From positions 12,599-76,598 of the forward strand of contig MPNG01000001.1 of the NCBI GenBank assembly GCA_002238905.1: 64,000 nt of DNA, in the 5' to 3' direction. A program made the position numbers and the translations under genes. Source of the stretch: Alphaproteobacteria bacterium bin98 (lineage in GTDB: Bacteria; Pseudomonadota; Alphaproteobacteria; Bin98). Under the pieces are notes generated by a model. That model did no database searches and had not been told where the DNA came from. It was given only the letters and a program-made list of their open reading frames with translations. Positions 1,775 through 55,206 of this stretch are shown here, in pieces (within the stretch, counting starts at the first letter, position 1; each line of letters opens with the position of its first letter).

Positions 1775-2605
1775 TATATCCTCATACTTTTAAAGTATAC
1801 TGCAATACTGCATATTTTAGCAAAAATTGAATGCGTATCGATACGAAGCTGTTTTTGATTTTCAGAAAAAGTCTGTATAACAATAAGAGGCGTTGTTTAT
1901 TAATCATAATACTATTGCATAAAAGTGCGTGCTGTCCTCGCATATCATGCCACAACACAACAATTGGCACATCTTTATAAATATGATGAGGACTCACAAG
2001 AGCGATCAAATTTTTTTCCACACTTCACAAATACCTTCTTTCATCGCAACTGTTTATAGTGCTACTTGCAAGTATGCATGATGCATTAAACCAGGTTTTT
2101 GTGAGAATATTAACATTATCTAACCAGCCTGAGTGAAACTGAGAGCACAAAAAGCATGCATGCTGCACGTTTTGTATAGAGGTGTAGTTGCGTTAATTCT
2201 GGTATCTGTCAGATTTTTTATAGTAGCGCAAATCCTATACGCAGATTATGTATTTATAGCCGTTATGCAAATAATCCTTTATGTATGATGATGTATGATG
2301 CCAGCATCTAGCAACGTTGTGCTCTAAAAAATGACTGCTTATAATGAGTAGAAAGACAATAATCAACCCCTAAAGCATTATCTCCACGAAATAGTATAAA
2401 TCATCGCTTTAGGCATCTATAGTATCAAAATTAATCAGTAAAATACCCGACTTCCAACTAGCTTTTCAAAGATCAATCACTAAAAAGAGTGTTTTTCTGT
2501 TCTTATTTAGAGCTTTTTGCATTTCTTTCGACTTAATGCAGACAAGCAAAGGTCAGAAACAATCTTCTACACTCAAGTAGTAGAGCCTTATCATCATATA
2601 TTGTT

Positions 2606-3355
2606 TCAATCTATCTCCTCCATGTAATGAAATGTCAGAATAAATTTTCTCAAGCGTTCAGAAGCCCAAATTTGTCTCCCCATACAGAAGCCTTCTAAAG
2701 ATGATAATAAGTATAGACATGCAGCATTGTATTGTGTCTCTAATGCTATTCTGCGAGGAGATACTTGGTATTTACGAAATAATTGCTTATATTCTGAATC
2801 TCTTTCAAATTCAGAAAAAAGATAAAAGAAGAGTTCTAGATCAAGTTGTTGGGCAAATCGCAGCTGTATGAAAGTCTTAAGATCATCTGGCTCAATCAAA
2901 GGGTTGCGTGAGGATATTCTTGTAGCAGTAAGAGCTAGTATCTTTTCAGAAGTCAGTTGATGATGTTCGGTCAAAGACTGTTCCATAACAGCCTTTACTT
3001 GTTTTGAAAAATTATGTAACAAGGTAAATCGCAAAGAAGAATAATGTTCCCGCGACAAGGCGTTTTGTAAGGTGGATGCCAAAATTTCTTTTTGTGTCTC
3101 TAATAACTTTTGATCTCCCCACTCTTTTAGCGATGGGTCAGCATGCCTGCGACGCAAACACTTAGATAGTCGAGAAATAGAATTAGAAAAACAGTGCAGT
3201 AGTGTGCCCCAACAGCTATTATCACTCCAGTTATTATAACTTATGCAGAGTGTCTGTATGGGGGGGGATTTTTTGTCCTTACACCGATCATCGGCGTTTT
3301 CTAAAGCTCCATGGAGATGAAAGCAGAGCAAAAATAATAATATATATGTCATCAA
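2606..3355 (-). CDS. secreted FC-family protein, subfamily A (HHxLTSxxILxLTAT)
   Basis: Signal peptide MMTYILLFLLCFHLHGA. Motifs HHQLTSEKILALTATRI, LDLELFFYLFSEFER and LLSSLEGFC. Paralog of 13441..14433. Confidence 0.65.
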   Translation of the reverse strand: MMTYILLFLLCFHLHGALENADDRCKDKKSPPIQTLCISYNNWSDNSCWGTLLHCFSNSISRLSKCLRRRHADPSLKEWGDQKLLETQKEILASTLQNALSREHYSSLRFTLLHNFSKQVKAVMEQSLTEHHQLTSEKILALTATRISSRNPLIEPDDLKTFIQLRFAQQLDLELFFYLFSEFERDSEYKQLFRKYQVSPRRIALETQYNAACLYLLSSLEGFCMGRQIWASERLRKFILTFHYMEEID

Positions 3356-3530
3356 TACACCTTATTTGTCAATACTAGATTACACGAGAATGAAATTAAA
3401 ACAAAGATCTCACTTACTCGCACTAAACAAAATCAATGCACCAAATGCTTTTTAAAAAGTTGATGTTTTTAGCAAAACAATCATTATTTAAAGCAATGAA
3501 GATAAATGTGAAGGTGAGACATTCAGAGGT

Positions 3531-3566
3531 GCCCCCTTAACCACTCACCTCTGAATATTCTTGCAA
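3531..3566 (-). terminator. 11-bp-stem hairpin downstream of 3596 gene; possible intrinsic terminator
   Basis: attcagaggtg / cacctctgaat perfect inverted repeat with a 14-nt loop, 30 nt past the stop of the minus-strand gene. An identical copy lies at 4617..4652. Confidence 0.35.
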
Positions 3567-3595
3567 ACTGTCGTAAAGCCTCTCCAATTTTGAAC

Positions 3596-4201
3596 TCAAT
3601 CCTTTTCTGTGAGACCGGTTAGGGAACGCCAGGCTTTATAACAAGCAATAGCTTCCTTCTGGCGCTCACAGAAATGCAAACAAGATAATAGAAGAGACTT
3701 ATAAGCTTTTACATATTTTGCCAACACAAGATCTGGATTATCCTGATTACAGCCATCGGTTACAGTAAGCATACAGCTTTGTCCAGTATAAGACAGAGCA
3801 TGCATGAAGGTTTCTGGAGTAAGATGGAAGCAAGGACTTAGCATATTGCTAGCTTGCTCTTTCATTTTGTCCTCACTTATGTCAGGATGTTTTTCGGTGA
3901 AATACTCTAAAAGTATATCCCGCAGTCCGTCTGCAAAAGCTTTTACTTCCTTAATGTTTTCCATTTGACAAATTGCTTGCGTCCGCAAGTGATCCGACAC
4001 ACGTTTTCTCCAAGGATTTTTGAAAGCAGTTTGACCTACGTCCCACCAAGAACACTGTAGAGTTAGTTCTAGAGGTGACATCGCACGCAGTTGATCTATT
4101 CTTGTGATCATATATTGTTCTAACGGACTATATTCACTCACACCCTCATCAGCTCCAGACACGTGCAAACAAATCAAAAATAATAGTGGTATGAATTTCA
4201 T
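3596..4201 (-). CDS. secreted FC-family protein, subfamily B (tandem paralog of 4689..5288)
   Basis: ORF runs to 4234, but the family signal peptide starts at MKFIPLLFLICLHVSGA (4201). GAGGA RBS upstream. Motifs KHPDIS and LLLSCLHFC. Confidence 0.65.
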   Translation of the reverse strand: MKFIPLLFLICLHVSGADEGVSEYSPLEQYMITRIDQLRAMSPLELTLQCSWWDVGQTAFKNPWRKRVSDHLRTQAICQMENIKEVKAFADGLRDILLEYFTEKHPDISEDKMKEQASNMLSPCFHLTPETFMHALSYTGQSCMLTVTDGCNQDNPDLVLAKYVKAYKSLLLSCLHFCERQKEAIACYKAWRSLTGLTEKD

Positions 4202-4247
4202 AGTTTTTTCCTCATAGTCAATATAAATATGCATTGTATATCGTATA

Positions 4248-4451
4248 TCATTTCAGCCGTGAAAGCAAATTTAAAACTATAATATTGCATTTCATGAATA
4301 TCTCCAATCTAGCGGAGTGCGTATAAAATGCTATAAATTTAGTGCGCCAAGATCCCACTTGTTTTACCAAAATCATGCACCTATCATCGGTGTTTTCTAA
4401 AGCTCGATGGAGATGAAAAAAGAGCAAAGATGATAATATATATGTCATCAA
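4248..4451 (-). pseudogene. truncated N-terminal duplicate of subfamily A gene (copy of 2606..3355 start)
   Basis: The first 25 codons and upstream DNA are near-identical to 2606..3355, followed by a deletion and divergence. Part of the 1.1-kb tandem duplication unit. Confidence 0.5.
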
Positions 4452-4616
4452 TACACCTTGTTTGTCGATACTATATTACACGCAAATGAAATTAAAACAA
4501 GGATCTCACTTACTCGCACTAAACAAAATCAATGCACCAAATGCTTTTTAAAAAGTTGATGTTTTTAGCAAAACAATCATTATTTAAAGCAATGAAGATA
4601 AATGGGAAGGTGAGAC

Positions 4617-4652
4617 ATTCAGAGGTGCCCCCTTAACCACTCACCTCTGAAT
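4617..4652 (-). terminator. duplicate copy of hairpin 3531..3566
   Basis: Identical inverted repeat within the duplicated intergenic segment. Confidence 0.3.
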
Positions 4653-4688
4653 ATTCTTGCAAACTGTCGTGCCTCTCCAATTTTGAAA

Positions 4689-5288
4689 TCAATCCTTTTC
4701 TGTGGGAACGATTAGGCGATGCCAGGTTTGATAATAAGAAATAGCTACCTTATTACCATCACAGAAATTTAAACAAGATAGTAGAAGATTCTTATAAGCT
4801 TGTACATATTTTGCGTTCACAGCATCTGGATTCCCCTGATTACGGATATCGCTTATATCCAGCAGATATCTTTCTTCAGAAAAACACAAAGCTTGCATGA
4901 AGATTTCTGGACTAAGATGGAAGCGAGGACTTAGCATATTGATCGCTTGCTCTTTCACTCTGGAATAACTTATGTCAGGATGCTTTTCTGTCTGATACTC
5001 TAAAAGTATCGTCAGCAATGGGTCTGCAAAACCTTTTAATTCCTTAATGTTTTCCATTTGACTAATTGCTTGCGTCTGCAAGTGATCCGACACACGTTTT
5101 CTCCAGGGATTTTTGAAATTAGCTTGATTTAGTCTCCAACAAGAACACTGTAGAGCTTGTTCTAGAGGTGGTAGCTGACGCACTGCATCTAATCTTAGGC
5201 ATAATTCTTTTAACGCACTCTGACAACACGCATCCTCATCAGATCCATACACGTGCAAACAAAGGAAAAATAGTAGTATGAATTTCAT
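4689..5288 (-). CDS. secreted FC-family protein, subfamily B
   Basis: Signal peptide MKFILLFFLCLHVYGS. Motifs KHPDIS and LLLSCLNFC. About 60% identical to 3596..4201. Confidence 0.65.
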   Translation of the reverse strand: MKFILLFFLCLHVYGSDEDACCQSALKELCLRLDAVRQLPPLEQALQCSCWRLNQANFKNPWRKRVSDHLQTQAISQMENIKELKGFADPLLTILLEYQTEKHPDISYSRVKEQAINMLSPRFHLSPEIFMQALCFSEERYLLDISDIRNQGNPDAVNAKYVQAYKNLLLSCLNFCDGNKVAISYYQTWHRLIVPTEKD

Positions 5289-5690
5289 AGTTTTTATCCA
5301 TAATCAATATACAAGTGAGTACTTAGGATCATTATATATCATTTATTTGTTTCAACAATGATTGAGATTGCATGAATTTGACACAATACAGAAAAATCTT
5401 TCAATTTCTATGTACCAAATGGTTTTTAAGAGGAAGGTAGAGCACGAAAAAGCATGGTTCTGTATGGATAGATTTGGCTTAATAGAATATCAACTTATTG
5501 CCCAACTGCTTTAAGCAATAAAGGTTACTCTCTTTGTATTTTCAAATCAACTGAATCAAGATAAACGTCGACGATCAGTAGTCTTTTGAGCAAGTGGATC
5601 AATTTTTGCAGGTTTTGCCTCAATCCAGATTATTTCTCTTGGATACCCAAGGAATATTCTATCAAGTGAAAAAAAATCAAAAGTGTCTCT

Positions 5691-6398
5691 CTACGAATGA
5701 GCTCTCTTAACACGCTTTGCTACCGATCTTTCAACGTTAACTTCAATAATGTCAAGGATCTCTTCCTGCCATAAAGAATAGTGTACATCAGATCGTACTA
5801 AGAAGTTGTCACAAAAACCATCGAAAGAGCTTAGGAGGTGATAATACATTCTTTGACATTTTTGATCATCACTTGAAACATCAGATGCTGAGAATGCATA
5901 TTCTCGTTCCAATAAAGCAAAAGAATGATAGTAAAGCGTTAGATCAAGATGGAAGTTTTTCTTTTCCATCTCAGGCACCTGCTTTGCCACCAACCCATCA
6001 GATATGATGGGATGCTTTTTTGTATAAACTTTCACAAGAACCTTGAGTACTAATTGTGCGATAGGCTTGAGTTCAAATAGTTTTGACGCCTCAGACAAAT
6101 TTATTTTCTTCATAATATTTTGAAACGCTGTTCTGAGTGTCGTATCCAAACAGCCTTCAGAGTAGAATGGCTCCAGAGGAGCATCACACACCATTCTGAT
6201 TCTTTCATCCAAAGAGTTTTGAGCTACATCCCACAAAGTGGCCTGCGTAGCTTTTTCCCCAAATGTCAGGGATGCACAACAGAAAGAAAGTCTTTTCTTT
6301 TTTGCCTCTTCTATAGCTATAGCAGAAAGGCACTCTGCGCTATAGCTAGCCTGTAAACAAGTTAAGGTTGAAAATAATAATATTAATCGCAATTTCAT
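5691..6398 (-). CDS. secreted FC-family protein, subfamily C (paralog of 27992..28684)
   Basis: Signal peptide MKLRLILLFSTLTCLQAS. Motifs KKHPIIS and LLSSFDGFC. Upstream DNA is also shared with the 27992 copy. Confidence 0.65.
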   Translation of the reverse strand: MKLRLILLFSTLTCLQASYSAECLSAIAIEEAKKKRLSFCCASLTFGEKATQATLWDVAQNSLDERIRMVCDAPLEPFYSEGCLDTTLRTAFQNIMKKINLSEASKLFELKPIAQLVLKVLVKVYTKKHPIISDGLVAKQVPEMEKKNFHLDLTLYYHSFALLEREYAFSASDVSSDDQKCQRMYYHLLSSFDGFCDNFLVRSDVHYSLWQEEILDIIEVNVERSVAKRVKRAHS

Positions 6399-6479
6399 AC
6401 ACTTATTATTTATTTTTTTTTTTTTGATGTCAATTCATAGACTCGTATTTTGCAAGCGATCATCATCCCAATAGAGCAG

Positions 6480-6760
6480 TGTAGATAAAACATTGCAGAA
6501 TTCCGGCAATCACCAGCACTCTTAAAAGACTCACAACTCAAAGAAGAGAGTTGGCATACAACGCAAGCACATATTGCTCAAAGCGTTGCGGTGGCAAAGA
6601 CATCCAAAGGACTAGCTGCTTTTGCTGGTTGAAGTTTGTTTTTTTCAGCAATTCTTTTTACGCTTTGACCTAAAAAAAGAATGGCGACAAGGATTTTTAG
6701 GGGAAGGTAGTGAATCTAGCGTTCAAATATTTAGATTTTTTCACTACCTTACACACATAG
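6480..6760 (+). pseudogene. mosaic of gene fragments
   Basis: 6521..6585 matches codons of 14690-type genes (14851..14915). 6579..6700 is about 95% identical to 32470..32590, the antisense 3-prime end of the NhaC-like gene. 6705..6755 matches 19045..19110. No open frame. Confidence 0.5.
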
Positions 6761-6840: not shown

Positions 6841-7407
6841 ATGATACAATTTTGTAATATGTTAATATTATTATTTTTCACTTGTTTACACACTTATGGA
6901 TCTTATGCTCCAGTGGCCACTGAAAAGCATCTTTGGCAACACAGTCAGGAAATATTTAAGCCGTATCGTGATGCCACTCTAGCGGCACTCCAACGCTCTC
7001 CATATACTTTGCGCACCTTAGAGTTAGTAGAAATGGAGTTTGGGGATGCCTATCCAAAATTTATGCTTAACGGTTGGAATATGACTGCATTTTCAAAGGA
7101 AGCTTTTGCTCATCAAGGCGTGTATCCCCAATTAAGATATATTCAAGATAATCCAGAAGATCCAAATTTTAATCTTGATATCCCTACCCTCTCTAAGGCT
7201 TTGACGATGGCCTCTGAGCATAACTCACTCCTTCAACTTCCACACTACACCCCCTTATTAGAAGTCGCTCTGCATGGACAGTATAGCCTCTTGTTATCTT
7301 GCAAAGCTTTCTGTGAAAACCGTCCAGGGGAGGCTTTCTCAGAGTATGAGAAATATTGGCACAATACTGCTTATACAAGCGTTTCAAAAAAAAAGAAATC
7401 GTCCTAG
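6841..7407 (+). CDS. secreted FC-family protein, subfamily D (paralog of 19192..19725)
   Basis: Signal peptide MLILLFFTCLHTYGS. Motif LLLSCKAFCEN. A degraded third copy lies at 17398..17890. Confidence 0.65.
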   Translation: MIQFCNMLILLFFTCLHTYGSYAPVATEKHLWQHSQEIFKPYRDATLAALQRSPYTLRTLELVEMEFGDAYPKFMLNGWNMTAFSKEAFAHQGVYPQLRYIQDNPEDPNFNLDIPTLSKALTMASEHNSLLQLPHYTPLLEVALHGQYSLLLSCKAFCENRPGEAFSEYEKYWHNTAYTSVSKKKKSS

Positions 7408-9882: not shown

Positions 9883-11094
9883 ATGCAAAACTCTAGTGAC
9901 ACTGCTTATTTAAAGAGATATATTAAATACGTGAATAAAGAGATATTTATGCCATTACTGTTATTATTTATAATTTGTTTGCAGGCTTATGGATCTGAAG
10001 GAGCCTGCGATGATGATGGTGATCCATGCGAAGATATCGTAAAATTTTTTGCGCAAAAGCGTATATCTTGTCTAAGCGAATTTGATGAGGGTTGTCGTGA
10101 TTTCCGAAGCTTTGCGAAACTAAAGATGAGTCTTGATGAATGGATGACCTTTGCGAAACCAGTGCTCACGATAGTGGATGCAGCCTACAAGAGACAGCAT
10201 CCCAATCTCTCTGAAGAGATGTTTGCAAAAAAGAGAGAGGATATTATCCAACTTGCTAAGCAAGGATTCTTTCCTCTTTCGATAGAGAAATTCTGCCTTT
10301 TCTTTCATGAGTTAAAGGTAGAGTTTAAGAGAGATTTGCAGGATTTGAGAGATTTGCAATTGCTGCATCAGACACTTTTGAGAGAGAAAGAGTTGGGGCA
10401 TTTGATAGATTTTATAAATATTCCACAAGAAAGAGCCAAAATTGAGAACAAAAACATACATTTATTCTTTTCCTTGTTAGAATCTTTATATCATTTCTGT
10501 CGAAAATCAAAAACAGGTGCAAATAGTGCTTATTGGCTGCAACTGGGCACATGGGAAAGCAATCAAAGAAAATTTGATCCATACAGAAGCAAGATTTTAA
10601 GAATTTTTGACCCAAAAACAACAGATGTTTTAGAGGTCTTAAAGAAAAGAGGCTTCTGCTTTAGTAGGTGTACTCTTTATCCTCAAAGCTTTGTACAACC
10701 AAAGATGAGCATGAATGAATGGATGACGTTTGCGCAACCAATAGTAGAGATCCTGCTATCAGCCTATAGGAAAATGTATCGTGGTAGTGCTGCAGAGATA
10801 TCTCAACAAAGTCTGTTGATTGCCCAATCTGCGAAGCAAGGATTTTTTAGACTTGATCTAGAAACCTACTTTCTATCTTTGCATCAATTAAAGATAGACT
10901 ATGAGAAAGATTTTCTACAAGAAGAAAGAGCAACACTCGAGGATGTACACATACACTCGCTTCGTTCCTTGTTAGAATCTTTATATGCTTTTTGTCTGCA
11001 TCAAAAAGTGGGTGCCGAGGAATCATATAGCGCTTGTTGGAAGAAACCTATTCAAAGAAAAGAGGCGAGAATGCATGCTGCAGTATTAGTGTGA
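9883..11094 (+). CDS. secreted FC-family protein, two-domain (internally duplicated) form
   Basis: Signal peptide MPLLLLFIICLQAYGS at codon 23. Two tandem copies of the family core: KMSLDEWMTFAKP ... LLESLYHFC and KMSMNEWMTFAQP ... LLESLYAFC. Confidence 0.65.
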   Translation: MQNSSDTAYLKRYIKYVNKEIFMPLLLLFIICLQAYGSEGACDDDGDPCEDIVKFFAQKRISCLSEFDEGCRDFRSFAKLKMSLDEWMTFAKPVLTIVDAAYKRQHPNLSEEMFAKKREDIIQLAKQGFFPLSIEKFCLFFHELKVEFKRDLQDLRDLQLLHQTLLREKELGHLIDFINIPQERAKIENKNIHLFFSLLESLYHFCRKSKTGANSAYWLQLGTWESNQRKFDPYRSKILRIFDPKTTDVLEVLKKRGFCFSRCTLYPQSFVQPKMSMNEWMTFAQPIVEILLSAYRKMYRGSAAEISQQSLLIAQSAKQGFFRLDLETYFLSLHQLKIDYEKDFLQEERATLEDVHIHSLRSLLESLYAFCLHQKVGAEESYSACWKKPIQRKEARMHAAVLV

Positions 11095-15481: not shown

Positions 15482-15718
15482 ATGCATCTCCTCAATGCGT
15501 TTTTAACTAACGCAGAGGCAAAGGTGTGGAGTTACACACTTTACCCCCCCAACCACTCTCCTGAAGCTACCGAACTATTGTGCGAATTTGAAGTTTTGGC
15601 GATACATACAGATCTGATAGAGACTATCAAGCATCTATGTGCAAACCAAGTGCATCAGGCTTTTCGCAGCTATTGTGTTTGGTATGAGAACAGAACGCCA
15701 ACGAAACAGATTAAGTAG
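15482..15718 (+). pseudogene. C-terminal fragment of an 11378..12193-like gene
   Basis: 78 aa align to the last 80 aa of 11378..12193. No signal peptide. Followed by the shared 3-prime hairpin module at 15795..15824. Confidence 0.5.
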
Positions 15719-17397: not shown

Positions 17398-17890
17398 CAT
17401 CAATATTACATTGATGTAACTATTTTTCACTTGTTTACATGCTGATGGCGCTTCTGCTCTAATGGCCGGTGAACAACTTAGTGAAACGGCACGTTGGCAA
17501 CAAACTCAGAAAAGATTGAAACCGTATCGTAATGGCGTTCTGGCGACACTCAGACGCTATCCATATATTTTACCACCCTAGAGTTAGTAGAATTTGATTT
17601 TAAAGACGACTATCAAAATGTATCCCTGGCAACCGCCTATATCTCAGGAATAAAAGCGATTTTTGTAATAAAGATGCCTCCGCAGTAAGCGATGTACAAG
17701 CTATACTGGCTTCACTGTCATCTTTGTTGGCTAACAGGTATCCCAACTTAAAAGATATTTAAGAGAATCCTCAAGATCCAAATTGTCATCTTGATCTCCC
17801 CTCACTGAAGCTTTAAAATGAGGCAACTAGCCCATACCTTCGCCTTTCATTGCCATTTGACCCCCCCTTATCAAAAACCCCTTGTGTGAT
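17398..17890 (+). pseudogene. degraded copy of subfamily D gene (6841..7407)
   Basis: DNA alignment to 6880..7270 with multiple stops and frameshifts. No ORF of 60 aa or more. Confidence 0.55.
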
Positions 17891-32345: not shown

Positions 32346-33620
32346 TTATTTTCTTTGTAAAAATAGTGCGCCTATTACATAAAGAGCAAGAGGGTAAAAG
32401 CAAAACGGCATAATATTAATGGGTGACTGGGAAACAATGGACGATGCCAGCAAGATTTGTGCTCCGTGAGGAATAATACACTGCGTTGCGGTGGCAAAGA
32501 CATCCAAAGTACTAGCTGCTTTTGCTGCTTGAAGTTTGTTTTTTTCAGCAATTCTTTTTACGCTTTGACCTGAAAAAAGAATGGCTATAGTGTTATTGGC
32601 AAAAATAATATCTGATATTATCGATATTTTGGCAATAAACCATGAGGCACGATAAGGATTTTTATATGATTTTTCAAGAATCTCCAAACCTTTATGTCGC
32701 ACAATAAACGCTTGTATACCTCCTAAGAAAAAGGAAAGGATGGCCACTTCCTTCATGGAAAAGATGCCTTCTTTAAATTGTTCTGCAAATGTTGTCGCAC
32801 TGTAATCAGAGAAGGAAATCCCTAGCAAAGCTGCAAAAAGTATAGATCCAAACAAAGAAAGTGTGACAGGTATACCCGCAAGCGCCAGTCCTGTGACCAT
32901 AACATAAGGAAGAAGTTTCCACCAAGAGATATCAGCTGCAATGTTTTCATTTCCTAGTATTGGTGTAGCGCCAAAGGCTGAAAAAATGCCATATAAAACA
33001 ATCACACTGATACACGCTATAAGCGCAGTTGGAGCGTTTGCTATAAGTTTTTCCTTTGGCGTTACACCTACAGTTTGTGATGCTGCAATGGAGGTGTCAG
33101 AAACAAGGGATAAGTTATCACCAAACGCCGACCCACTCACCACAGCTCCAATAAGCCATAACGCTGCTAATGAATCGCCATGCGCCAATTCAACAGCAAA
33201 AGGCCCCACAACTCCAATAACACCCATAGAAGTTCCCAAAGCCATGGATATTAAGCAAGAAACAAAAAATATACCTGGCAATATTGCTCCAGATGGAAGA
33301 AATTCTTGTGTAATAAGCACGGCTTCTTGGACACTTCCAATGCCTTTGCTAACTTCGGAAAATGCACCGGCCAAAAAAAATATGAAGAGCATGGCCGCAA
33401 TGCCTTCATTTGCAAAACCTTTGCATAAATTATCGACCCTTTTTTTTAAAGAACCAGAGTCTAAAAGAACCGACAAAAAAAGTGCTGGCATAATACAGAC
33501 AACCGCTGAAACCTTGTAAAAAGCAAAATCAGCACCTTGGAGTGTAAAGTAAATCCCGCAACCTAAAAAAAGCAGGACAAATAATAAAATGGGGCTTAAC
33601 GATCTATATAACATGATCAT
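32346..33620 (-). CDS. NhaC-like / ion-transporter-superfamily polytopic membrane permease
   Basis: 424 aa with about 11 hydrophobic segments. GDNLSLVSDTS-type motifs are typical of the IT superfamily (NhaC-like). Its 3-prime 120 bp are duplicated at 6579..6700. Confidence 0.5.
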   Translation of the reverse strand: MIMLYRSLSPILLFVLLFLGCGIYFTLQGADFAFYKVSAVVCIMPALFLSVLLDSGSLKKRVDNLCKGFANEGIAAMLFIFFLAGAFSEVSKGIGSVQEAVLITQEFLPSGAILPGIFFVSCLISMALGTSMGVIGVVGPFAVELAHGDSLAALWLIGAVVSGSAFGDNLSLVSDTSIAASQTVGVTPKEKLIANAPTALIACISVIVLYGIFSAFGATPILGNENIAADISWWKLLPYVMVTGLALAGIPVTLSLFGSILFAALLGISFSDYSATTFAEQFKEGIFSMKEVAILSFFLGGIQAFIVRHKGLEILEKSYKNPYRASWFIAKISIISDIIFANNTIAILFSGQSVKRIAEKNKLQAAKAASTLDVFATATQCIIPHGAQILLASSIVSQSPINIMPFCFYPLALYVIGALFLQRK

Positions 33621-36863: not shown

Positions 36864-38510
<1,647 letters not shown>

Positions 38511-38985: not shown

Positions 38986-39591
38986 TCACATCCACCTTAC
39001 AACCCTTTGTTGGAGTGTATTGACCAAACATTGCCACTTATAATATTCGTCCTCAGCGTCTAATTTCTTTTCCTCACAATAATATTTCAAAGATAATAAG
39101 AGGGTAGAGTACACGCTACCACTGTCCAGAGAGACAGATGCACCTTTTGCTTCTAAAAGTAATCTCTCGAATTCTGTACTTGTAGTACAAAAAGCACAAA
39201 GGTACGTTAGTGGGTTAAGATGAAAATACCGAGCTCTGCAATCCACCATTGCTTGACGTCTCCTCTCATCATTTTCTAGCAACTTCTCTTTGTTGCAGAA
39301 CTGTGCAAGCATATCTTCTACTGGTGTTACGCAATCTTTCATTAATCGCTGAAAATCATTAGTGTGTATTGTCCCGCACGGTAAAGTTAAAGTAGAAAAA
39401 AAATCTTTCAAACCTGTTCTGCACTCATCAAAAGATCGTTGATCCATTTTCCATTTAAAATATCGCAACCCCATATCTTCTGCTGATTGAGTCCTAAATA
39501 GCATATATCTATACAATTCAGACTCAGAGTCCTTCCCGCTCTCTGTTCCATGAGAGTATGAGCATATCAAAAATATTAATATCAGTTTCAT
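38986..39591 (-). CDS. secreted FC-family protein
   Basis: Signal peptide MKLILIFLICSYSHG. Motifs YLCAFCTT and LLLSLKYYCEEKK. Confidence 0.65.
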   Translation of the reverse strand: MKLILIFLICSYSHGTESGKDSESELYRYMLFRTQSAEDMGLRYFKWKMDQRSFDECRTGLKDFFSTLTLPCGTIHTNDFQRLMKDCVTPVEDMLAQFCNKEKLLENDERRRQAMVDCRARYFHLNPLTYLCAFCTTSTEFERLLLEAKGASVSLDSGSVYSTLLLSLKYYCEEKKLDAEDEYYKWQCLVNTLQQRVVRWM

Positions 39592-42488: not shown

Positions 42489-42677
42489 ACACTATGTTTG
42501 TGTGAAGGACAGCTTCTTTGTCAATATGAGCATTTTTAATTCAACCGTGATTAATATCATGACTTTAAAAATAATGTAACGCTATCATGTCGTAATATTA
42601 TGATTTTCAATTTTCTTACATGATCATGGAGCGAAAAAAGTTTTTGAATCAGAAAATATATTAATCATATGGGTGAG

Positions 42678-43313
42678 TTAAACAAGCATAAAGATCAATT
42701 CGCTCAGCACAACATCACGAGCCTCGTATTCATACATGTGTGTGAGACGCCAAATATTATATTTTCGTTCAGCGACTTCCTTATTATCCGCACAGTAAGC
42801 TTGAAAAGCTGATAAGAGGAGCCAATACTGCTGCGTATATATTGGGTCTAGCGAAGAGAGATCTTTTTTATATCTTGCCTCTAAGAGTAGTGAGTGACCC
42901 CTCTCTCTCAATACTAAAAAAGCATAACAAAAGATCTTTGCATCAAGCTCAAAGTACACATCTAGGAGATTTTTCTCATAATTCACATCACCTGCTCTGA
43001 AGACATCCCTTTTTCAGAAGGCATCAAGTACATTTTCTATTTGCTCTGAGAAAGCCATTAATTCTTTAAGATTCCTTATATCAAAAAAATTTTGAGGGTT
43101 TAATATATCTTGACAGGTTTTCCTGCAGGTGAAACATTCTTGATTTTTTGCCACCTAATAGTGCGCATAGCTTGCTCCTGGATTATAATCCGTTCACTAA
43201 TTTTCTTGAGTCTGAGAAGATCAGCAGAATTCTCTAACGATATTGCGTCATCTGCTTCATGCGCCAGTGAATAGATTAAAAATAGTAAGATTAATTTGAT
43301 AAATGCATTTCAT
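42678..43313 (-). pseudogene. disrupted tandem paralog of 43379..44029 (subfamily H)
   Basis: DNA collinear with 43379..44029. The N-terminal reading frame is broken (ATG frame stops after 18 codons; G-to-A change). Only the C-terminal 102-aa ORF is open. Confidence 0.55.
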
Positions 43314-43378
43314 AGAGAAACCGTATCACATCTTCATCATACCCTCAATCAATTTAAGAGTGGATGGGTTGAAAGGGC

Positions 43379-44029
43379 TTAGATTAGCTCCATGTTCTGC
43401 TGCATCACAAAATCACGAACCTTGTGTTCCTGTAGGTGTGTGAGACGCCAAATATTATATTTTCGTTCAGCGACTTCCTTATTATCATCAGAGTAAGCTT
43501 GAAAAGCTGATAAGAGGAGATGATACTGCTCCGCATATATTGGGTCTAGCGAGCAATCTTGCCTCAACATTATATAGCTTGCCTCTAATAATACTGCGCC
43601 ACACTTCTTTCTCAATACTAGAAAAGCATCATAGAAGGTCTTTGCATCAAGCTCAAAGAGCACATCTAAGAACTTTTGTGAAGAACCCACCTCCCCTGTT
43701 CTGAATATATTATTGCTTTTGCAGAAGGTGTCAAGCTTATTTTCTATGCGCTCTGAGAAAGCCATTAATGTTTCAAGATTGCTTATATCAAGAAAATTGT
43801 AAGGATTTAATATATCTTGACAGGCTTGCCTGCAAGTGAAACATTTTTGATTTTCTTTCCAGCGAACACAGCGCATATCTTGCCTCTCGATAGGCAAACA
43901 GCACTTGATTTCCCTTATTCTTTGAAAATCAGCATAATTCTCCAAATCGATTTCGGCACCTGCTCCATGCGCCAGTGAATAGATTAAAAATAATAAGATT
44001 AATGTCATGCTCATAAATGTACCTTTCAT
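43379..44029 (-). CDS. secreted FC-family protein, subfamily H (LLSAFQAYxxDNKEVAERKYNIWRL)
   Basis: Signal peptide MTLILLFLIYSLAHGA, with likely start at 44008. Cys-rich N-terminal part. C-terminal motif. Confidence 0.65.
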   Translation of the reverse strand: MKGTFMSMTLILLFLIYSLAHGAGAEIDLENYADFQRIREIKCCLPIERQDMRCVRWKENQKCFTCRQACQDILNPYNFLDISNLETLMAFSERIENKLDTFCKSNNIFRTGEVGSSQKFLDVLFELDAKTFYDAFLVLRKKCGAVLLEASYIMLRQDCSLDPIYAEQYHLLLSAFQAYSDDNKEVAERKYNIWRLTHLQEHKVRDFVMQQNMELI

Positions 44030-44505
44030 AGAAAAATCATATCACATGTTCTTCATATCCTCACTTTGTCAATCAATACATTTAACAAAAGTATTATTTT
44101 TCTCATCACTCACATGATCTGTTGACAAAATGAAGTGACCAATTTGGAATTTGGATAGACAACTTCTAGCGGTTGGTGAGCCCAATCACAGTATTTTTTC
44201 TTATATTTCTCTTTATTTTTGTTTGAGAGATTTCATCAATGCCAACGAAGAATATAATGCTTTGTTAGCTCTTGTAATAGCATATAGAGATAGACCTCTA
44301 TTGCAATTTTGTACATTATTAAAAAATCAAAAATTTGAGAAGACTGTTTACACTTTTCCTCTAGAGAGAAAATCAGCTATTTCAACACACCTCCATGCCT
44401 CTTGAACGCAGTCTATGTTCGCAATCAAAAATTTATATAGTAAGGTACAGGTTTTGTGCTGACTATTTAGCGTATTCTCCCGCTTCAAGATTTTAGCCTA
44501 TTCTG

Positions 44506-45120
44506 CTAGGCATTATTAATCCACGTACTCTTCTTCCTTGAGCAAATCCTTAGTAACATTCCTTCGTGGAGGTGTATAAAACGACAAATATTAAACTTTC
44601 GTTCAGATTCATCTTGAATTTCTAAAGAGTAATTTCGAAGATCTGATAAGAGACTATGATACTCCTGAATGTATCTTAAGCCTTGCAGAGGAGGGCCGCT
44701 CTCGCATTGATATTCTCTCTCTAAGCATCGTAAATGCACATTTCCTCTCAAGAGTGAAAAAGCACAGAAGAAGGTTAATGCATTAAGTTCAAATCTCCTC
44801 TTTAGGGACTCTGACATATCAAAATACACAACATCCCAATCGCCTATTAGATCAATTTTGTGTCAGAATTCTGCAAGCATCATATTAAGAAAAACTGCAG
44901 GATCGAGATTCTTTTCAAAATATTCTCGGACAGAATCAAAACGTTGTTGATCTGAGGTCCAGTTAAAAGCGCGCATACCTCGCTCTTTAACTGTTAAACG
45001 AAGCAATGAATAAAACCTTTGTGCGTCAGCAACATCCTCAAGAGGATGGCTCTCTCTGAAAGACGGTTTGACATAAGTTAATGATGCTCCATGAGCTTTT
45101 GAATAGATAAAAATTAAAAA
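44506..45120 (-). pseudogene. frameshifted subfamily H-like gene (N-part 44830..45120, C-part 44506..44829)
   Basis: The N-part is about 95% identical at DNA level to 46180..46499. The two halves are in different frames with stops between them. Confidence 0.5.
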
Positions 45121-45321
45121 AACAATAACATAAATTTTTTTCTCAACATGAGCATTTTCAATGAAACCGTAATTAATATTATCACTTGAAAAAAATAATT
45201 TATAACGCTGACATGTCGAATATTATTATTTTTAATCTGTTTACATGCTCATGGCGCTAAAAAAGTTTTTGAACCAGATAGACTATATTAATCATCTTGA
45301 TGAATTAAGGGTCTTGGAAAC

Positions 45322-46098
45322 TCAGTGCGGCCCAGCTCTCCTCCGCATCACAGCATCACGAACATTAGGTCCCTCGAGGTATCTGAGACGCCAAATATTA
45401 TATTTTCGTTCAGCTTTTTCATGATTCTCCACACAGTAAGCTTCCATAGCTGATAAGAGGTCATGATACTGCTGGATGTATATTGGCGGAGACAAATATT
45501 GCTGAAATTCTGGCTGATCGTACAGACAGTAATTTTGAAAAGATAATAAGAGGTCGCGACACTCCGGCGTGTACGCTGAGTTTGACGGAGACAAATATTG
45601 CTGAGATAATTTTTTATATCTTTGCGCTGATAATACTGACGTAACATGGCCTCTCAACATTGCAAAAGCACAGAAGAAGCTGAATGCATTAAGCTCAAAG
45701 AGCTCATCTGTGACAATGTTCACAACAGACTTCATATCAGCATAAGCGATTAAATTATGGTGCTGGTTTTTCTTCAGAAGCTCTTCTAATTCCACTGAAA
45801 ATGCCATTAATTCTTCAAGATCGACCATCTCAATCCACTTCTGAGAATCGAGTATTTTTTTACAAGCTTCCCCGCAATTCCCAAAATGTTCTTGATTTTT
45901 TATCCTGTTGAGCTCCCGCACACCTTGCCTTTCTACTGACAGACGGTTGAGTGCAGTTATTCTTTGCGCATCAGCAAACTCCTCCAGAATGGTGGTGGGC
46001 TCTGCTCCATGCGCCAGTGAATAGATTAAAAATAATAAGATTAATGTCATGAATAAACCTCTAATACAAAGTTTATATCCTATTCTCAGCTTTATCAA
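45322..46098 (-). CDS. secreted FC-family protein, subfamily H, with duplicated FC motif
   Basis: Signal peptide MTLILLFLIYSLAHGA at codon 17. Motifs LLLSFQNYCLY and LLSAMEAYCV. About 90% identical to 46639..47415. Confidence 0.65.
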   Translation of the reverse strand: MIKLRIGYKLCIRGLFMTLILLFLIYSLAHGAEPTTILEEFADAQRITALNRLSVERQGVRELNRIKNQEHFGNCGEACKKILDSQKWIEMVDLEELMAFSVELEELLKKNQHHNLIAYADMKSVVNIVTDELFELNAFSFFCAFAMLRGHVTSVLSAQRYKKLSQQYLSPSNSAYTPECRDLLLSFQNYCLYDQPEFQQYLSPPIYIQQYHDLLSAMEAYCVENHEKAERKYNIWRLRYLEGPNVRDAVMRRRAGPH

Positions 46099-46139
46099 TG
46101 AAGAAATTTAAAAAAATGATTGTTCCCCTCATGTTCACA

Positions 46140-46499
46140 TCATACCAACATTGGTTGTGAGAATTCCATTAATTTTTTAATACACTTTATATTAAGAAAA
46201 ACTGCAGGATCGAGATTCTTTTCAAAATATTCTCGGACAGAATCAAAACGTTGTTGATCTGAGGTCCAGTTAAAAGCGCGCATACCTCGCTCTTTAACTG
46301 TTAAACGAAGCAATGAATAAACCCTTTGTGCGTCAGCAACATCCTCAAGAGGATGGCGCTCTCTGATAAAACGGTTTGACATGACATAAGTTAATGATGC
46401 TCCATGAGCTTTTGAATAGATAAAAATTAAAAAAAACAATAACATAAACTTTTTTCTCAACATGAGCATTTTCAATGAAACCGTAATCAATATTATCAC
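46140..46499 (-). pseudogene. C-terminally truncated subfamily H-like gene
   Basis: 119-aa ORF with signal peptide MLLFFLIFIYSKAHGA. Homologous to the N-part of 44506..45120. The core and FC motif are deleted. Confidence 0.5.
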
Positions 46500-46638
46500 T
46501 TGAAAAAAAATAATTTATAATGCTGACATGTCGTTAATATTATTATTTTTAATCTGTTTACATGCGCATGGAGCTAAAACAGTTTTTGAACCAGATAGAT
46601 TATATTAATCATCTTGATGAATTAAGGATCTTGGAAAC

Positions 46639-47415
46639 TCAGTACGGCGCTCTCTCCTTCACAGCAGCACAAACATTAGGTCCATTGAGGTATGTAAGAC
46701 GCCAAATATTATATTTTCGTTCAGCTTTTTCATGATTCCCCACACAGTAAGCTTCCATAGCTGATAAGAGGTCATGATACTGCTGGATGAGCATTTCTGG
46801 CGGAGACAAAGATTTCTTAGATTTTGGCCGCTCGTACAGACAGTAATTTTGAAAAGATAATAAGAGGTCGCGACACTCCGGCGTGTACACTGACTCTGAC
46901 GGAGACAAATATTGCAGAGATAATTTTTTATATCTTTGCGCTGATAATACTGACGTAACCTGGCCTCTCAACATTGCAAAAGCACAGAAGAATTTGAATA
47001 CATCAAGCTCAAAGTACTCATCTGTGACATTGATAACAACAGCCTTCATATCAGGACGAGTGATTAAATCAGTCTGCTGGTTTTGCTTCAGAAGCTCTTC
47101 TAATTCCACTGAAAATGCCATTAATTCTTCAAGATCGACCATCTCAATCCACTTCTGAGAATCGAGTATTTTTTTACAAGCTTCCCCGCAATTCCCAAAA
47201 TGTTCTTGATTTTTTATCCTGTTGAGCTCCCGCACACCTTGCCTTTCTCCTGACAGATGGTTGATTTCATTTATTCTTTGCGCATCAGCAAACTCCTCCA
47301 GAATGGTGGTGGGGGGCTCTGCTCCATGCGCCAGTGAATAGATTAAAAATAATAAGATTAATGTCATGAATAAACCTCTAATACAAAGTTTATATCCTAT
47401 TCTCAGCTTTATCAA
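46639..47415 (-). CDS. secreted FC-family protein, subfamily H (recent tandem duplicate)
   Basis: Near-identical to 45322..46098, including flanks 46060..46140 = 47377..47460. Confidence 0.65.
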   Translation of the reverse strand: MIKLRIGYKLCIRGLFMTLILLFLIYSLAHGAEPPTTILEEFADAQRINEINHLSGERQGVRELNRIKNQEHFGNCGEACKKILDSQKWIEMVDLEELMAFSVELEELLKQNQQTDLITRPDMKAVVINVTDEYFELDVFKFFCAFAMLRGQVTSVLSAQRYKKLSLQYLSPSESVYTPECRDLLLSFQNYCLYERPKSKKSLSPPEMLIQQYHDLLSAMEAYCVGNHEKAERKYNIWRLTYLNGPNVCAAVKERAPY

Positions 47416-47695
47416 CGAAGAAATTTAAAAAAATGATTGTTCCCCTCATGTTCACATCATACCAACAAAGGTAGTAAGCACTCGGAATTTGATATCTTAT
47501 AAGGGCTGTTGAAACAAAGCATGACAAGTTGCATTGTGAGACGTTGCGCAATCTAAGAAGTCATAATAGAGAAATCTTAAAAAAAAGCGTGTGAGAATAT
47601 TGACAGATTCATATTATGTGAATGAGTTGTGTTGGTCCAAATTTGCTCTGCAAACACCATTTTTTCGTGCAAAGTACAATGATATAATACAAAAG

Positions 47696-53650: not shown

Positions 53651-54856
53651 ATGATGTCTGTAAGCTTAGCGATGTGGCGCAATTGGTCATTTATCACACT
53701 GTTTTATGCCTACCAATATATAGTGCGCGTATTACCCAATATTATCTACAAACCTATTGTAGAAACCTTTGGCATTAATGCTACTATTTTTGGACAATTT
53801 TCAGGCATTTATTATATAGGATACGCATTAGCACACATACCTGTAAGCCTATTGTTTGATCGATTTGGATTGAAAAAAGTTCTACCACTAACGCTTTTAT
53901 TAATGGTGGGAGGGCTTTTGCCTATTATTTATACAGAATCATGGATTTACCCTGTATTTGGAAGATTTTTAACCGGCATTGGCTCTGCCTCCGTAACGCT
54001 GGCGGCTTTTCACATTATTCGTGTAGGATTTCCCGTGGCAAAACATCCTATGATGCTAAGTTTAACAATAGCATTGGGATTGGTTGGGGCTGTTTATGGA
54101 GGAAGGCCTACAGCTTACCTTTGCGACCAACTTGGACATGTAGCCGTTATTCAGATTTTGGTTGCGGTAGGCAGTATTATTTCTGTAATTTCTTATATTT
54201 CACTTCCTAAGGAAAAAAATCGTTTAAAAGATGTGCAAATTTTGAAAGGCCTTAAGCATGTTTTTTGTAACAAAAACACCATGTGGATGTCTCTTACAGC
54301 GGGTTTAATGATTGGATCACTTGAAGGTTTTCCAGATGCTTGGGGCGTTATGTTTTTTACAAAAGTATACGGACTTCAGTTTGATTACTCCGCCCAATTA
54401 ACCTCTCTTATATTTTTAGGTTTAGGAGTTGGCGGCCCATTGGTTAGCTACGCAGCAGAAAAAACTGGAAAAGCCCTTTGGTTTATTATCATCGCAGGCA
54501 TTTGTATGGCTGTTCCCTTTTTATTCTTTTTGGGAATGCAGCTTTCTGACACAATGCTGATCGTTTCATTGATTACTATTGGAGTGGGATGCTCTTATCA
54601 AATGCTCTCTATTTACCATGCCTCTTACTTTGTGGAAAAAAAATATGCCACTATTTCTACAGCAGTGGTGAATATGATTTTGATGGGGTTTGGACATTTA
54701 CTACACAGCGCAATTGGATGCACCGTCAATATTTCAGGCGGATTGGATAATGTGCAAGCCTTGAAAAATGGCCTTTATGTTGTTCCATTAGCCAGCCTTT
54801 TGGGTGCTATTATTTTAATTATTCGCAGAAAATATTTTCAAAACCTCAAATCCTGA
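53651..54856 (+). CDS. MFS transporter (paralog 3 of 3)
   Basis: 401 aa. Starts 2 nt after the previous stop. Its 3-prime 215 bp are duplicated at 57165..57379. Confidence 0.8.
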   Translation: MMSVSLAMWRNWSFITLFYAYQYIVRVLPNIIYKPIVETFGINATIFGQFSGIYYIGYALAHIPVSLLFDRFGLKKVLPLTLLLMVGGLLPIIYTESWIYPVFGRFLTGIGSASVTLAAFHIIRVGFPVAKHPMMLSLTIALGLVGAVYGGRPTAYLCDQLGHVAVIQILVAVGSIISVISYISLPKEKNRLKDVQILKGLKHVFCNKNTMWMSLTAGLMIGSLEGFPDAWGVMFFTKVYGLQFDYSAQLTSLIFLGLGVGGPLVSYAAEKTGKALWFIIIAGICMAVPFLFFLGMQLSDTMLIVSLITIGVGCSYQMLSIYHASYFVEKKYATISTAVVNMILMGFGHLLHSAIGCTVNISGGLDNVQALKNGLYVVPLASLLGAIILIIRRKYFQNLKS

Positions 54857-55071
54857 CGCATGACATTTTTGAACAAATTTTTTTCTGACAGAGCAGAAAA
54901 AGGTTAGCTATATATTTTTGACACTCTACTTTTCAATCAATTCCTGCTAAAAACATAAATGAGGTATTTTTCCATGCCTTTAAAAGGTGATATTTTTTAG
55001 ATAAAAATAAATATTTTTATTTAAACAATATTATTCTATTGATGTATAATTTTTTCATCAAAAGGTATTAT

Positions 55072-55206
55072 ATGTCGCTACTGTTGTTCTTATTTTTTAT
55101 TGCTTTAGATTCCCAAGGATATCACAAGATTACAGATTTTATGGAGACTACTCTTGAGCACACTAAAGCCAAATGCGCCCCTACTCATAGAGTGATCCTG
55201 TCTAGA
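55072..55206 (+). pseudogene. stub with signal peptide homologous to the N-terminus of 57609..61223
   Basis: MSLLLFLFFIALDSQGYHK... is 45 codons long. Its DNA and upstream region are homologous to 57540..57670. Confidence 0.45.

Follow-up and report, generated by a model that had tools for sequence, protein, structure and literature searches.

Within a 64,000-nt stretch of the genome of Alphaproteobacteria bacterium bin98 (GenBank assembly GCA_002238905.1, contig MPNG01000001.1, positions 12,599 to 76,598; hereafter the window, meaning this whole stretch), we analyzed a locus at which a gene, B, the intergenic region (IGR) that follows it and the beginning of the next gene, A, are present twice in direct orientation (Table 1). 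All genes at the locus lie on the minus strand and, read 5' to 3', the order is B2, IGR2, a truncated copy of A (A'), B1, IGR1 and A. A segment of ~950 bp, comprising the B leader, B, the 240-nt IGR and the first 74 nt of A, underwent a single tandem duplication; the A fragment that it carried along is now a dead relic, and both B copies are intact with a conserved scaffold, their amino acids having diverged two to three times faster than neutral.

Table 1. Features of the duplicated locus (positions of the window; nt, nucleotides; aa, amino acids; ORF, open reading frame)
Feature	Position	Strand	Description
Repeat copy 1	3282..4231	-	A 5' end, IGR1, B1 and ~30 nt of B1 leader with GAGGA ribosome-binding site
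Repeat copy 2	4378..5317	-	A' 5' end, IGR2, B2 and ~30 nt of B2 leader
Gene A, full length	2606..3355	-	248 aa from ATG 3352 or 249 aa from TTG 3355
Gene B1	3596..4201	-	201 aa from ATG 4201; 212 aa from ATG 4234 in some gene callers
Gene B2	4689..5288	-	199 aa, intact paralog of B1
A' relic	4248..4451	-	67-aa ORF, truncated copy of A
Spacer between copies	4232..4377		146 nt, holds the out-of-homology tail of the A' ORF
IGR1	3356..3595		Between B1 stop and A start
IGR2	4452..4688		Hairpin 4617-4652 and promoter-like site 4608..4579
IGR core	3389..3574		186 nt, 2 substitutions relative to copy 2 (3405, 3509), 184/186 identical
Hairpin, copy 1	3521..3556		Arms ATTCAGAGGTG / CACCTCTGAAT, 14-nt loop, 40 nt downstream of B1 stop
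Promoter-like site, copy 1	3483..3512	-	TTCACA-18-AATAAT, 10/12 matches, directly after hairpin, ~125 nt upstream of A start

The repeat finder returned two families of paired repeats with a spacing of 1093-1096, D1 (3282-3574 = 4378-4670, 95% identity) and D2 (3578-3877 = 4671-4970, 80% identity), which BLAST merged into one alignment of 3282-4225 with 4378-5311 at 85.2% identity over 945 nt (IGR part, E = 5e-142; B part, E = 5e-158), identifying the arrangement as a tandem segmental duplication. A base-by-base list of differences and a sliding-window comparison showed that the left breakpoint was sharp (3281/3282 = 4377/4378) and that homology on the right ended ~30 nt ahead of the B start codons (~4231 = ~5317). 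Of gene A, repeat copy 1 takes in only the first 74 nt (3282-3355), and A' is homologous to A only over the matching 4378-4451 (90.5% identity; 7 of 74 nt differ), where 5 of 25 residues differ and hydrophobic signal-peptide residues have been lost in A'. No homolog of the spacer was found, its DNA having only a weak likeness to signal-peptide-coding DNA; it carries a weak signal-peptide-like relic at 4253-4296. A model in which signal-peptide sequences had crossed over unequally was discarded, the DNA upstream of B2 (5318-5470) not being homologous to the spacer. The claim of an earlier note on this DNA that a tandem duplication had given rise to two B paralogs and a truncated copy of A was thus borne out, as was its description of direct copies with a hairpin in the intergenic region, which is present in both; the limits that it had drawn around the repeated unit, however, have to be replaced by those given in Table 1, with all genes on the minus strand.

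B1 and B2 were 80.6% identical in DNA and 60.2% identical in protein, with 78 amino-acid replacements, so that the figure of 60% that the earlier note had given for the B genes is right for the protein but not for the DNA. Counting by the method of Nei and Gojobori (NG86) gave a synonymous divergence (dS) of 0.123 and a non-synonymous divergence (dN) of 0.260, with a dN/dS ratio (omega) of 2.1 (Fisher p = 0.0076). In a pairwise Goldman-Yang likelihood model (GY94), which we wrote ourselves for this analysis, omega was 2.47 when codon frequencies followed F3x4 and 3.04 when they were set equal (likelihood-ratio tests against omega = 1, p = 0.0044 and 0.00035, respectively). The dN/dS that the earlier note had proposed to compute therefore came to 2.1 by counting and 2.5-3.0 by maximum likelihood, and across methods the synonymous and non-synonymous divergences of the pair were 0.09-0.12 and 0.26-0.28, respectively. 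Tandem major facilitator superfamily (MFS) transporter genes of the same window, used as a control, had an omega far below 1 under GY94. The differences between B1 and B2 were distributed over the three codon positions as 54/41/23, third positions being the least changed (chi-square p = 0.002).

Three neutral-like classes of sites within the repeat served as an internal yardstick: synonymous sites of the B genes (14 of 124 differ, 0.11), the dead A' fragment (7 of 74, 0.095) and the A-proximal leader at the IGR edge (5 of 36, 0.14). Because the three agree, the whole unit can be traced to one duplication, at a divergence of ~0.11 substitutions per site. Against this yardstick, 104 of 473 non-synonymous sites in the B genes differed (22%), twice the proportion in the pooled neutral-like classes (Fisher p = 4e-4), and the excess coding divergence of B1 and B2 is entirely non-synonymous.

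The non-coding part of the unit behaved differently from the B genes. IGR1 and IGR2 differed in 11 of 240 alignment columns (95.4% identity), well above the DNA identity of the B genes, in agreement with the earlier note, which had held the intergenic regions to be more alike than the coding ones. The longest exact run between the IGR copies was 103 nt (3406-3508). With ~20 differences expected at the neutral-like rate, the IGR core was ~1% diverged, ten times less than the pooled neutral-like classes (Fisher p = 1.7e-5; binomial 1e-5 to 9e-7). On the minus strand, the core starts ~20 nt past the B stop and comprises the hairpin, the promoter-like site and ~87 nt of A leader. Both hairpins have arms of 11-12 bp, a 14-nt loop and a folding energy of -16 to -20 kcal/mol; they do not make an intrinsic terminator, having this long loop and no T-run on either strand, and a terminator scan made no call. 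The promoter-like site of copy 2 reads TTCCCA-18-AATAAT, and the pair constituted the best sigma-70-like match in the region; judged by its placement, the site would drive A in copy 1 or A'-B1 in copy 2. On the plus strand, the core also contains a 34-codon ORF (MHQMLFKKLMFLAKQSLFKAMKINVKVRHSEVPP, 3445-3549; copy at 4541-4645) that runs antisense to the array, ends in the hairpin and differs between the copies by a single V->G change; its presence is probably fortuitous. A search of 2400-5600 against Rfam 15 gave only two chance-level hits (E = 0.4 and 0.8), both outside the IGRs. Further copies of the IGR element were found neither in the window nor beside the third A-type paralog (P0034, contig L016), which shares signal-peptide DNA only, and a scan for the hairpin pattern returned one chance match among genome contigs (Aquibacillus albus) and none among metagenome contigs.

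Our reading of the locus, to which we assign a probability of roughly 65%, is that one moderately old duplication came first and positive selection then acted on the B proteins, the IGR core being later homogenized or unusually constrained. The simplest reading of the B pair itself is not decay but positive (diversifying) selection acting on two predicted secreted proteins. In the course of events that we propose, a single tandem duplication of the ~950-bp segment (B leader, B, IGR and A 5' end) would have been followed by decay of the A fragment in copy 2, with both B genes staying intact; diversifying selection would then have acted on the amino acids of B1 and B2 while sparing scaffold residues, and a later short-tract conversion or unequal exchange would have homogenized the 186-nt core. 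The earlier note had offered two explanations for the contrast between coding and non-coding parts. Its recent duplication with accelerated coding divergence becomes the main explanation, dS being close to the divergence of the flanks and omega exceeding 1, while its old duplication with homogenized non-coding DNA fails for the unit as a whole, whose synonymous sites are not old, and is likely to hold, unless constraint is responsible, for the 186-nt core.

Several points weigh against this reading. The omega values derive from a single pair of genes with ~124 synonymous sites and 14 synonymous differences, and there was no outgroup, so the substitutions were neither polarized nor assigned to a branch. 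Omega could be inflated by AT-biased mutation where first and second codon positions are relaxed, for which the F3x4 frequencies correct only in part, and the neutral yardsticks may themselves be mildly constrained. As for the core, its substitution at 3509 falls in the putative -35 hexamer, promoter-like matches in the region were no commoner than in shuffled sequence, the hairpin is not followed by a U-tract, the fold of the whole IGR was no better than that of shuffles (z = -0.35), and two copies alone cannot separate conversion from constraint.

That the core is far less diverged than its surroundings is plain; as the cause, we lean towards an event after the duplication in which the copies exchanged sequence, either by gene conversion over a short tract or by unequal exchange. 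The core has the character of a less-diverged tract by which gene conversion is recognized, with 2 differences in 3389-3574 compared with ~11% in the flanks and at synonymous sites. Alternatively, the core could be a functional element under strong purifying selection, such as a small RNA, a leader or a terminator-promoter cassette, a view that we take seriously without expecting it to prevail. It would account for the presence in both copies of a 12-bp hairpin 40 nt past the B stop with the region's best promoter-like match after it, and for the retention of the 34-codon ORF in both; furthermore, both copies could be of use after the duplication, the upstream one as terminator of B2 and promoter of A'-B1. 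However, the element has no match in Rfam and no other copy in the window or beside the third A-type paralog, its fold does not rise above shuffles, and one of its only two changes lies in the putative -35 box. Regulatory DNA usually constrains a fraction of sites, yet here 184 of 186 positions were identical where ~20 differences were expected. Since ordinary regulatory constraint would not freeze so many positions, conversion is favored over constraint on the element as a whole.

We consider it unlikely that the B copies are decaying under relaxed constraint, with an omega above 1 produced by noise and AT-biased mutation. Relics do occur among the genes of the array (A', truncated ORFs at 42678-42986 and 44506-44829 and, past the window edge, a fragment of the 3' end of A2), the genome is AT-rich (37% GC; 0.50 at first and 0.32-0.34 at third codon positions), and several other paralog pairs have an omega near 1. 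However, both B ORFs are full length, both coding indels are single codons and in frame, and when random substitution was simulated at the observed density, the chance that both ORFs would stay open under neutral drift was ~0.002. Omega was significantly greater than 1, and not just equal to it, under both codon-frequency models, and third codon positions were the least changed, as described above. In addition, the differences between B1 and B2 avoided columns conserved in the other 24 paralogs (22% versus 50% changed, p = 2e-4), and the family motifs W..Q, FHL.PE.FM.AL, Y..LLLSCL.FC and Y..W were kept in both proteins.

Two other sources of the differences between B1 and B2 were considered and rejected. 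Clustering of multi-nucleotide mutations would be expected to raise the number of codons with multiple hits, which was only slightly in excess (25 versus 20 expected), and mosaic conversion from other paralogs would have had to draw on relatives no more than 35% identical; no donor above this level was found in the window or among the 5.8 billion and 1.84 billion proteins of the databases searched. Neither an ortholog nor a diverged strain of B1/B2 was found, the sole homologs at that level being B1 and B2 themselves, and a B1/B2-based scan of metagenome contigs gave no match.

It is improbable that B1 and B2 are ancient and that the whole of the non-coding part, including the 5' end of A, was recently converted in concert. 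The IGRs are indeed more alike than the B genes (95% versus 80.6%), and the core has just 2 differences and the 103-nt exact run. One contig, L005 (JGI 3300002160, 1977 bp), moreover joins IGR1 to IGR2 inside that run, as an exchange between copies would look: it corresponds to window 4308->3406 followed by 4501->3428, both exact, so that two copies of B1 are linked via a hybrid IGR and A', with the switch inside the 103-nt exact repeat. This contig is either a de Bruijn assembly cycle or a three-copy haplotype from unequal exchange. However, the A' relic (0.095) and the IGR edges (~0.14) have diverged as much as the synonymous sites of B1/B2 (0.09-0.12); the coding region is thus no older than most of the non-coding DNA, and only the 186-nt core needs a separate explanation. 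We also saw no overlapping conserved antisense gene that could constrain the synonymous sites of B.

The B2-A'-B1-A arrangement was found at 99.9-100% identity in at least eight independent metagenome assemblies, on contigs of 2-17 kb and from different pipelines; assemblies carrying exact B1 and B2 were JGI 3300027391, 3300027327, 3300027951, 3300002151 and 3300002147, ENA ERZ27241788, NCBI GCA_026710745.1 and Logan SRR8092709. That an assembler made the repeat or its copy number is hardly credible, for although a de Bruijn cycle through the 103-nt repeat is the easiest reading of the B1-IGR-A'-B1 path of L005, the arrangement recurs in these assemblies and its copies differ at 15% of positions, so that an assembler could neither collapse nor invent them. 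Copies of the locus from different samples differed by 0-4 mismatches over 2-11 kb, a difference that the divergence since duplication (~0.11 per site) far exceeds.

A and B belong to a family that dominates the window. In an iterated hidden Markov model (HMM) search, 38 of the 74 window ORFs of at least 90 aa fell into one family containing both, with members at, for example, 1196-1774, 5691-6398, 6841-7407, 9883-11094, 22496-24548, 25366-31019, 38986-39591, 42678-47415 and 61687-63952; gene A matched the HMM of this orphan family with E = 1e-40, its paralogs being recovered by BLASTP as well. Two-domain fusions occur among the members (9883-11094), and in P0003, a member of 1581 aa encoded elsewhere in the genome, 9 stretches were matched. 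When 1.84 billion representative proteins were searched with a profile, 66 hits (clusters) were returned, about half of them encoded in the window, and all 20 of the outside-window hits that were looked up carry OXC30_ locus tags of one metagenome-assembled genome labeled 'Alphaproteobacteria bacterium'. Members share a Sec-signal-like N-terminus, M.LILLFL.CLH..GA, which is conserved even in DNA (repeat families D3 and D5); the signal peptide was judged by eye, and equivalents of the B1 N-terminus (MKFIPLLFLICLHVSG/ADE) were conserved across 26 aligned paralogs. A lipobox ([LVI][ASTVI][GAS]C) was not found in B1 (...LFLIC LHVSG) or B2 (...FFLC LHVYG), in which I or L precedes the cysteine. The AlphaFold2 model of B1 was confidently all-alpha (pLDDT 88.7), the N-terminus being modeled as a helix. 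Searches of A, B1, B2 and their neighbors against Pfam (E <= 0.1), NCBIfam, PADLOC and PHROGs gave no match, and a profile search against PDB sequences gave chance hits only. We infer from these sequence comparisons that A and B are members of one very large family of predicted Sec-exported, all-helical proteins, found only in one organism, which appears to grow by tandem duplication and rapid divergence.

One member of the family clusters comes from GenBank MKWU01 (MKWU00000000), an Illumina assembly of the metagenome of the sponge Aplysina aerophoba (PMC5649159, PMC5099237). In that metagenome, bin98 is an alphaproteobacterial genome of 1.9 Mb with 40.65% GC and only 34% of its coding sequences in COGs (PMC5649159, PMC5099237). 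The nearest database relatives of the DnaE encoded in the window are only 55-56% identical to it. In the nearest relative (Logan SRR7783622; DnaE 55%), whose contig L019 (9445-10000) was compared with 42489-47590 of the window, alr sits next to dnaE, with three MFS genes behind it just as in the window, but the 5-kb block of family genes that lies between alr and dnaE in the window (42.6-47.5 kb) is absent, and no family member was found in the 23 kb of sequence from this relative. Since the block is missing there and no family member occurs in that sequence, we take the array to be a lineage-specific innovation.

The A/B duplication is one instance of a process repeated in the array. A second tandem pair, 44882-46161 / 46189-47478, is 93% identical with a period of ~1307-1317 and is younger; its genes (45322-46098 and 46639-47415) have 84% protein identity, a dS of 0.016 and an omega of 5.6-5.9 (p ~3e-4), with differences clustered in patches. 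In a third pair, 61755-62437 / 62790-63472, the copies are 81% identical and omega is 1.2-1.9. Elsewhere in the array, two pairs of intergenic regions, 26364-26629/30143-30410 (80%) and 5593-5690/27894-27983 (87%), are more alike than the adjoining family genes (29% to ~60% in protein); non-coding flanks that are better conserved than the genes may be common throughout the array.

Homopolymer tracts of G or C of at least 7 nt were more frequent in the window than in shuffles (6 observed versus 0.59 expected), lying at 3260-3267, 15544-15550, 17861-17867, 23196-23203, 28000-28006 and 36923-36929. The C8 run at 3260-3267 is inside gene A and starts 15 nt beyond the duplication breakpoint, another tract is just past the signal peptide of gene 36864-38510, and a T13 run (6413-6425) is just upstream of gene 5691-6398. 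Judged by their sequence, such tracts could possibly act as slipped-strand switches; no differences in tract length were seen between consensus assemblies.

Other repeats were observed in and around the window. A 103-nt repeat (97% identity) occurs upstream of gene 5691-6398 (6583-6685) and inside an ORF annotated as a Na+/H+ antiporter (32483-32585, in 32346-33620). A 498-nt repeat (90%) covers the 3' end of the third MFS gene and the DNA downstream of it (54637-55119) and appears again just upstream of 57609-61223 (57160-57656), the latter being a 1204-aa ORF with internal repeats of ~100-300 nt (58578-59981). Past the left window edge, 8347-8472 of contig L001 repeats, at 90.5% identity, 126 nt from the 3' end of gene 1196-1774 (1201-1326); this relic is downstream of a third B-type gene (window <1-574; 208 aa in L001).

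How sponge symbionts escape digestion and stay host-specific is, to our knowledge, largely unknown, and the candidate molecules put forward so far are mostly eukaryote-like repeat proteins. The present locus is a reproducibly assembled example of a different candidate class, an orphan family of predicted exported helical proteins that takes up a large share of the region. Rapid divergence of proteins after a tandem duplication is a familiar course of evolution; what is new is the family on which it acted and the clean internal calibration of rates. Within 1.1 kb, the locus amounts to a natural experiment in which a gene under positive selection lies beside a relic evolving neutrally and a non-coding core that has hardly changed, and with the second tandem pair the family provides two independent cases in which dN/dS exceeded 1 soon after the genes were duplicated in tandem. 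Because the proteins have a predicted export signal, have expanded in a fast-evolving symbiont and show positive selection, they most plausibly interact with a changing partner, be it sponge host factors, phages or competitors. More tentatively, and as a scenario that we think rather unlikely in its full form, the repertoire of at least 66 paralog clusters might diversify by duplication, selection, conversion of regulatory DNA and possibly poly-G/C slippage, and thereby manage recognition at the sponge-host or phage interface; if true, it would parallel, in a bacterium, the variant multigene families known from eukaryotic parasites. The duplicate pair is a convenient target for studies of expression, localization and binding and for population sequencing.

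The less-diverged tract at 3389-3574, ten times less diverged than its flanks and lying between 85%-identical direct repeats, resembles the concerted evolution of tandem paralogs, for which the 103-nt exact run could serve as a recombination substrate, although here there are two copies without an ortholog and strong constraint would give the same picture. As to the proteins, the helical lipoprotein families of Borrelia (PF12 family BBH37, PDB 8s2f) are multicopy, small and host-associated like the A/B family, and all-helical and exported as the latter is predicted to be, and BBH37 was among the weak Foldseek matches, at a level that is not significant (E = 2.8, TM = 0.17); unlike them, however, B1 and B2 have no lipobox, and the genes are chromosomal rather than plasmid-borne. 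The SVM/SAP effector genes of phytoplasmas (Pfam PF12113, SVM_signal) offer a second parallel, the N-terminal signal peptide, putative in the A/B family, being the best conserved part, the mature parts divergent and the copies many in a reduced, host-dependent genome. The A/B family differs from these in that its proteins are larger (170-400 aa) and encoded in chromosomal arrays between housekeeping genes rather than in potential mobile units, and in that its host is a Gram-negative alphaproteobacterium, in which a Sec signal alone reaches only the periplasm; A, B1, B2 and their neighbors had no match to SVM_signal or to any other Pfam family at E <= 0.1. An expansion of a novel gene family in a symbiont has reportedly been described for Cardinium cCpun. 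Within the Alphaproteobacteria themselves, the OMP-1/p28/msp2 arrays of Ehrlichia and Anaplasma are known as cases in which genes for lineage-specific secreted or surface proteins were duplicated in tandem and then came under positive selection. Their products are beta-barrel outer-membrane proteins, in contrast to the predicted soluble, all-alpha A/B family, to which they have no relation in sequence or fold, and no expression-site or pseudogene-cassette mechanism is evident at the present array. In organization and mode of change, however, the two are alike: clustered paralogs in a small, AT-rich, host-associated genome, local duplication, relics among intact genes and fast divergence of the proteins.

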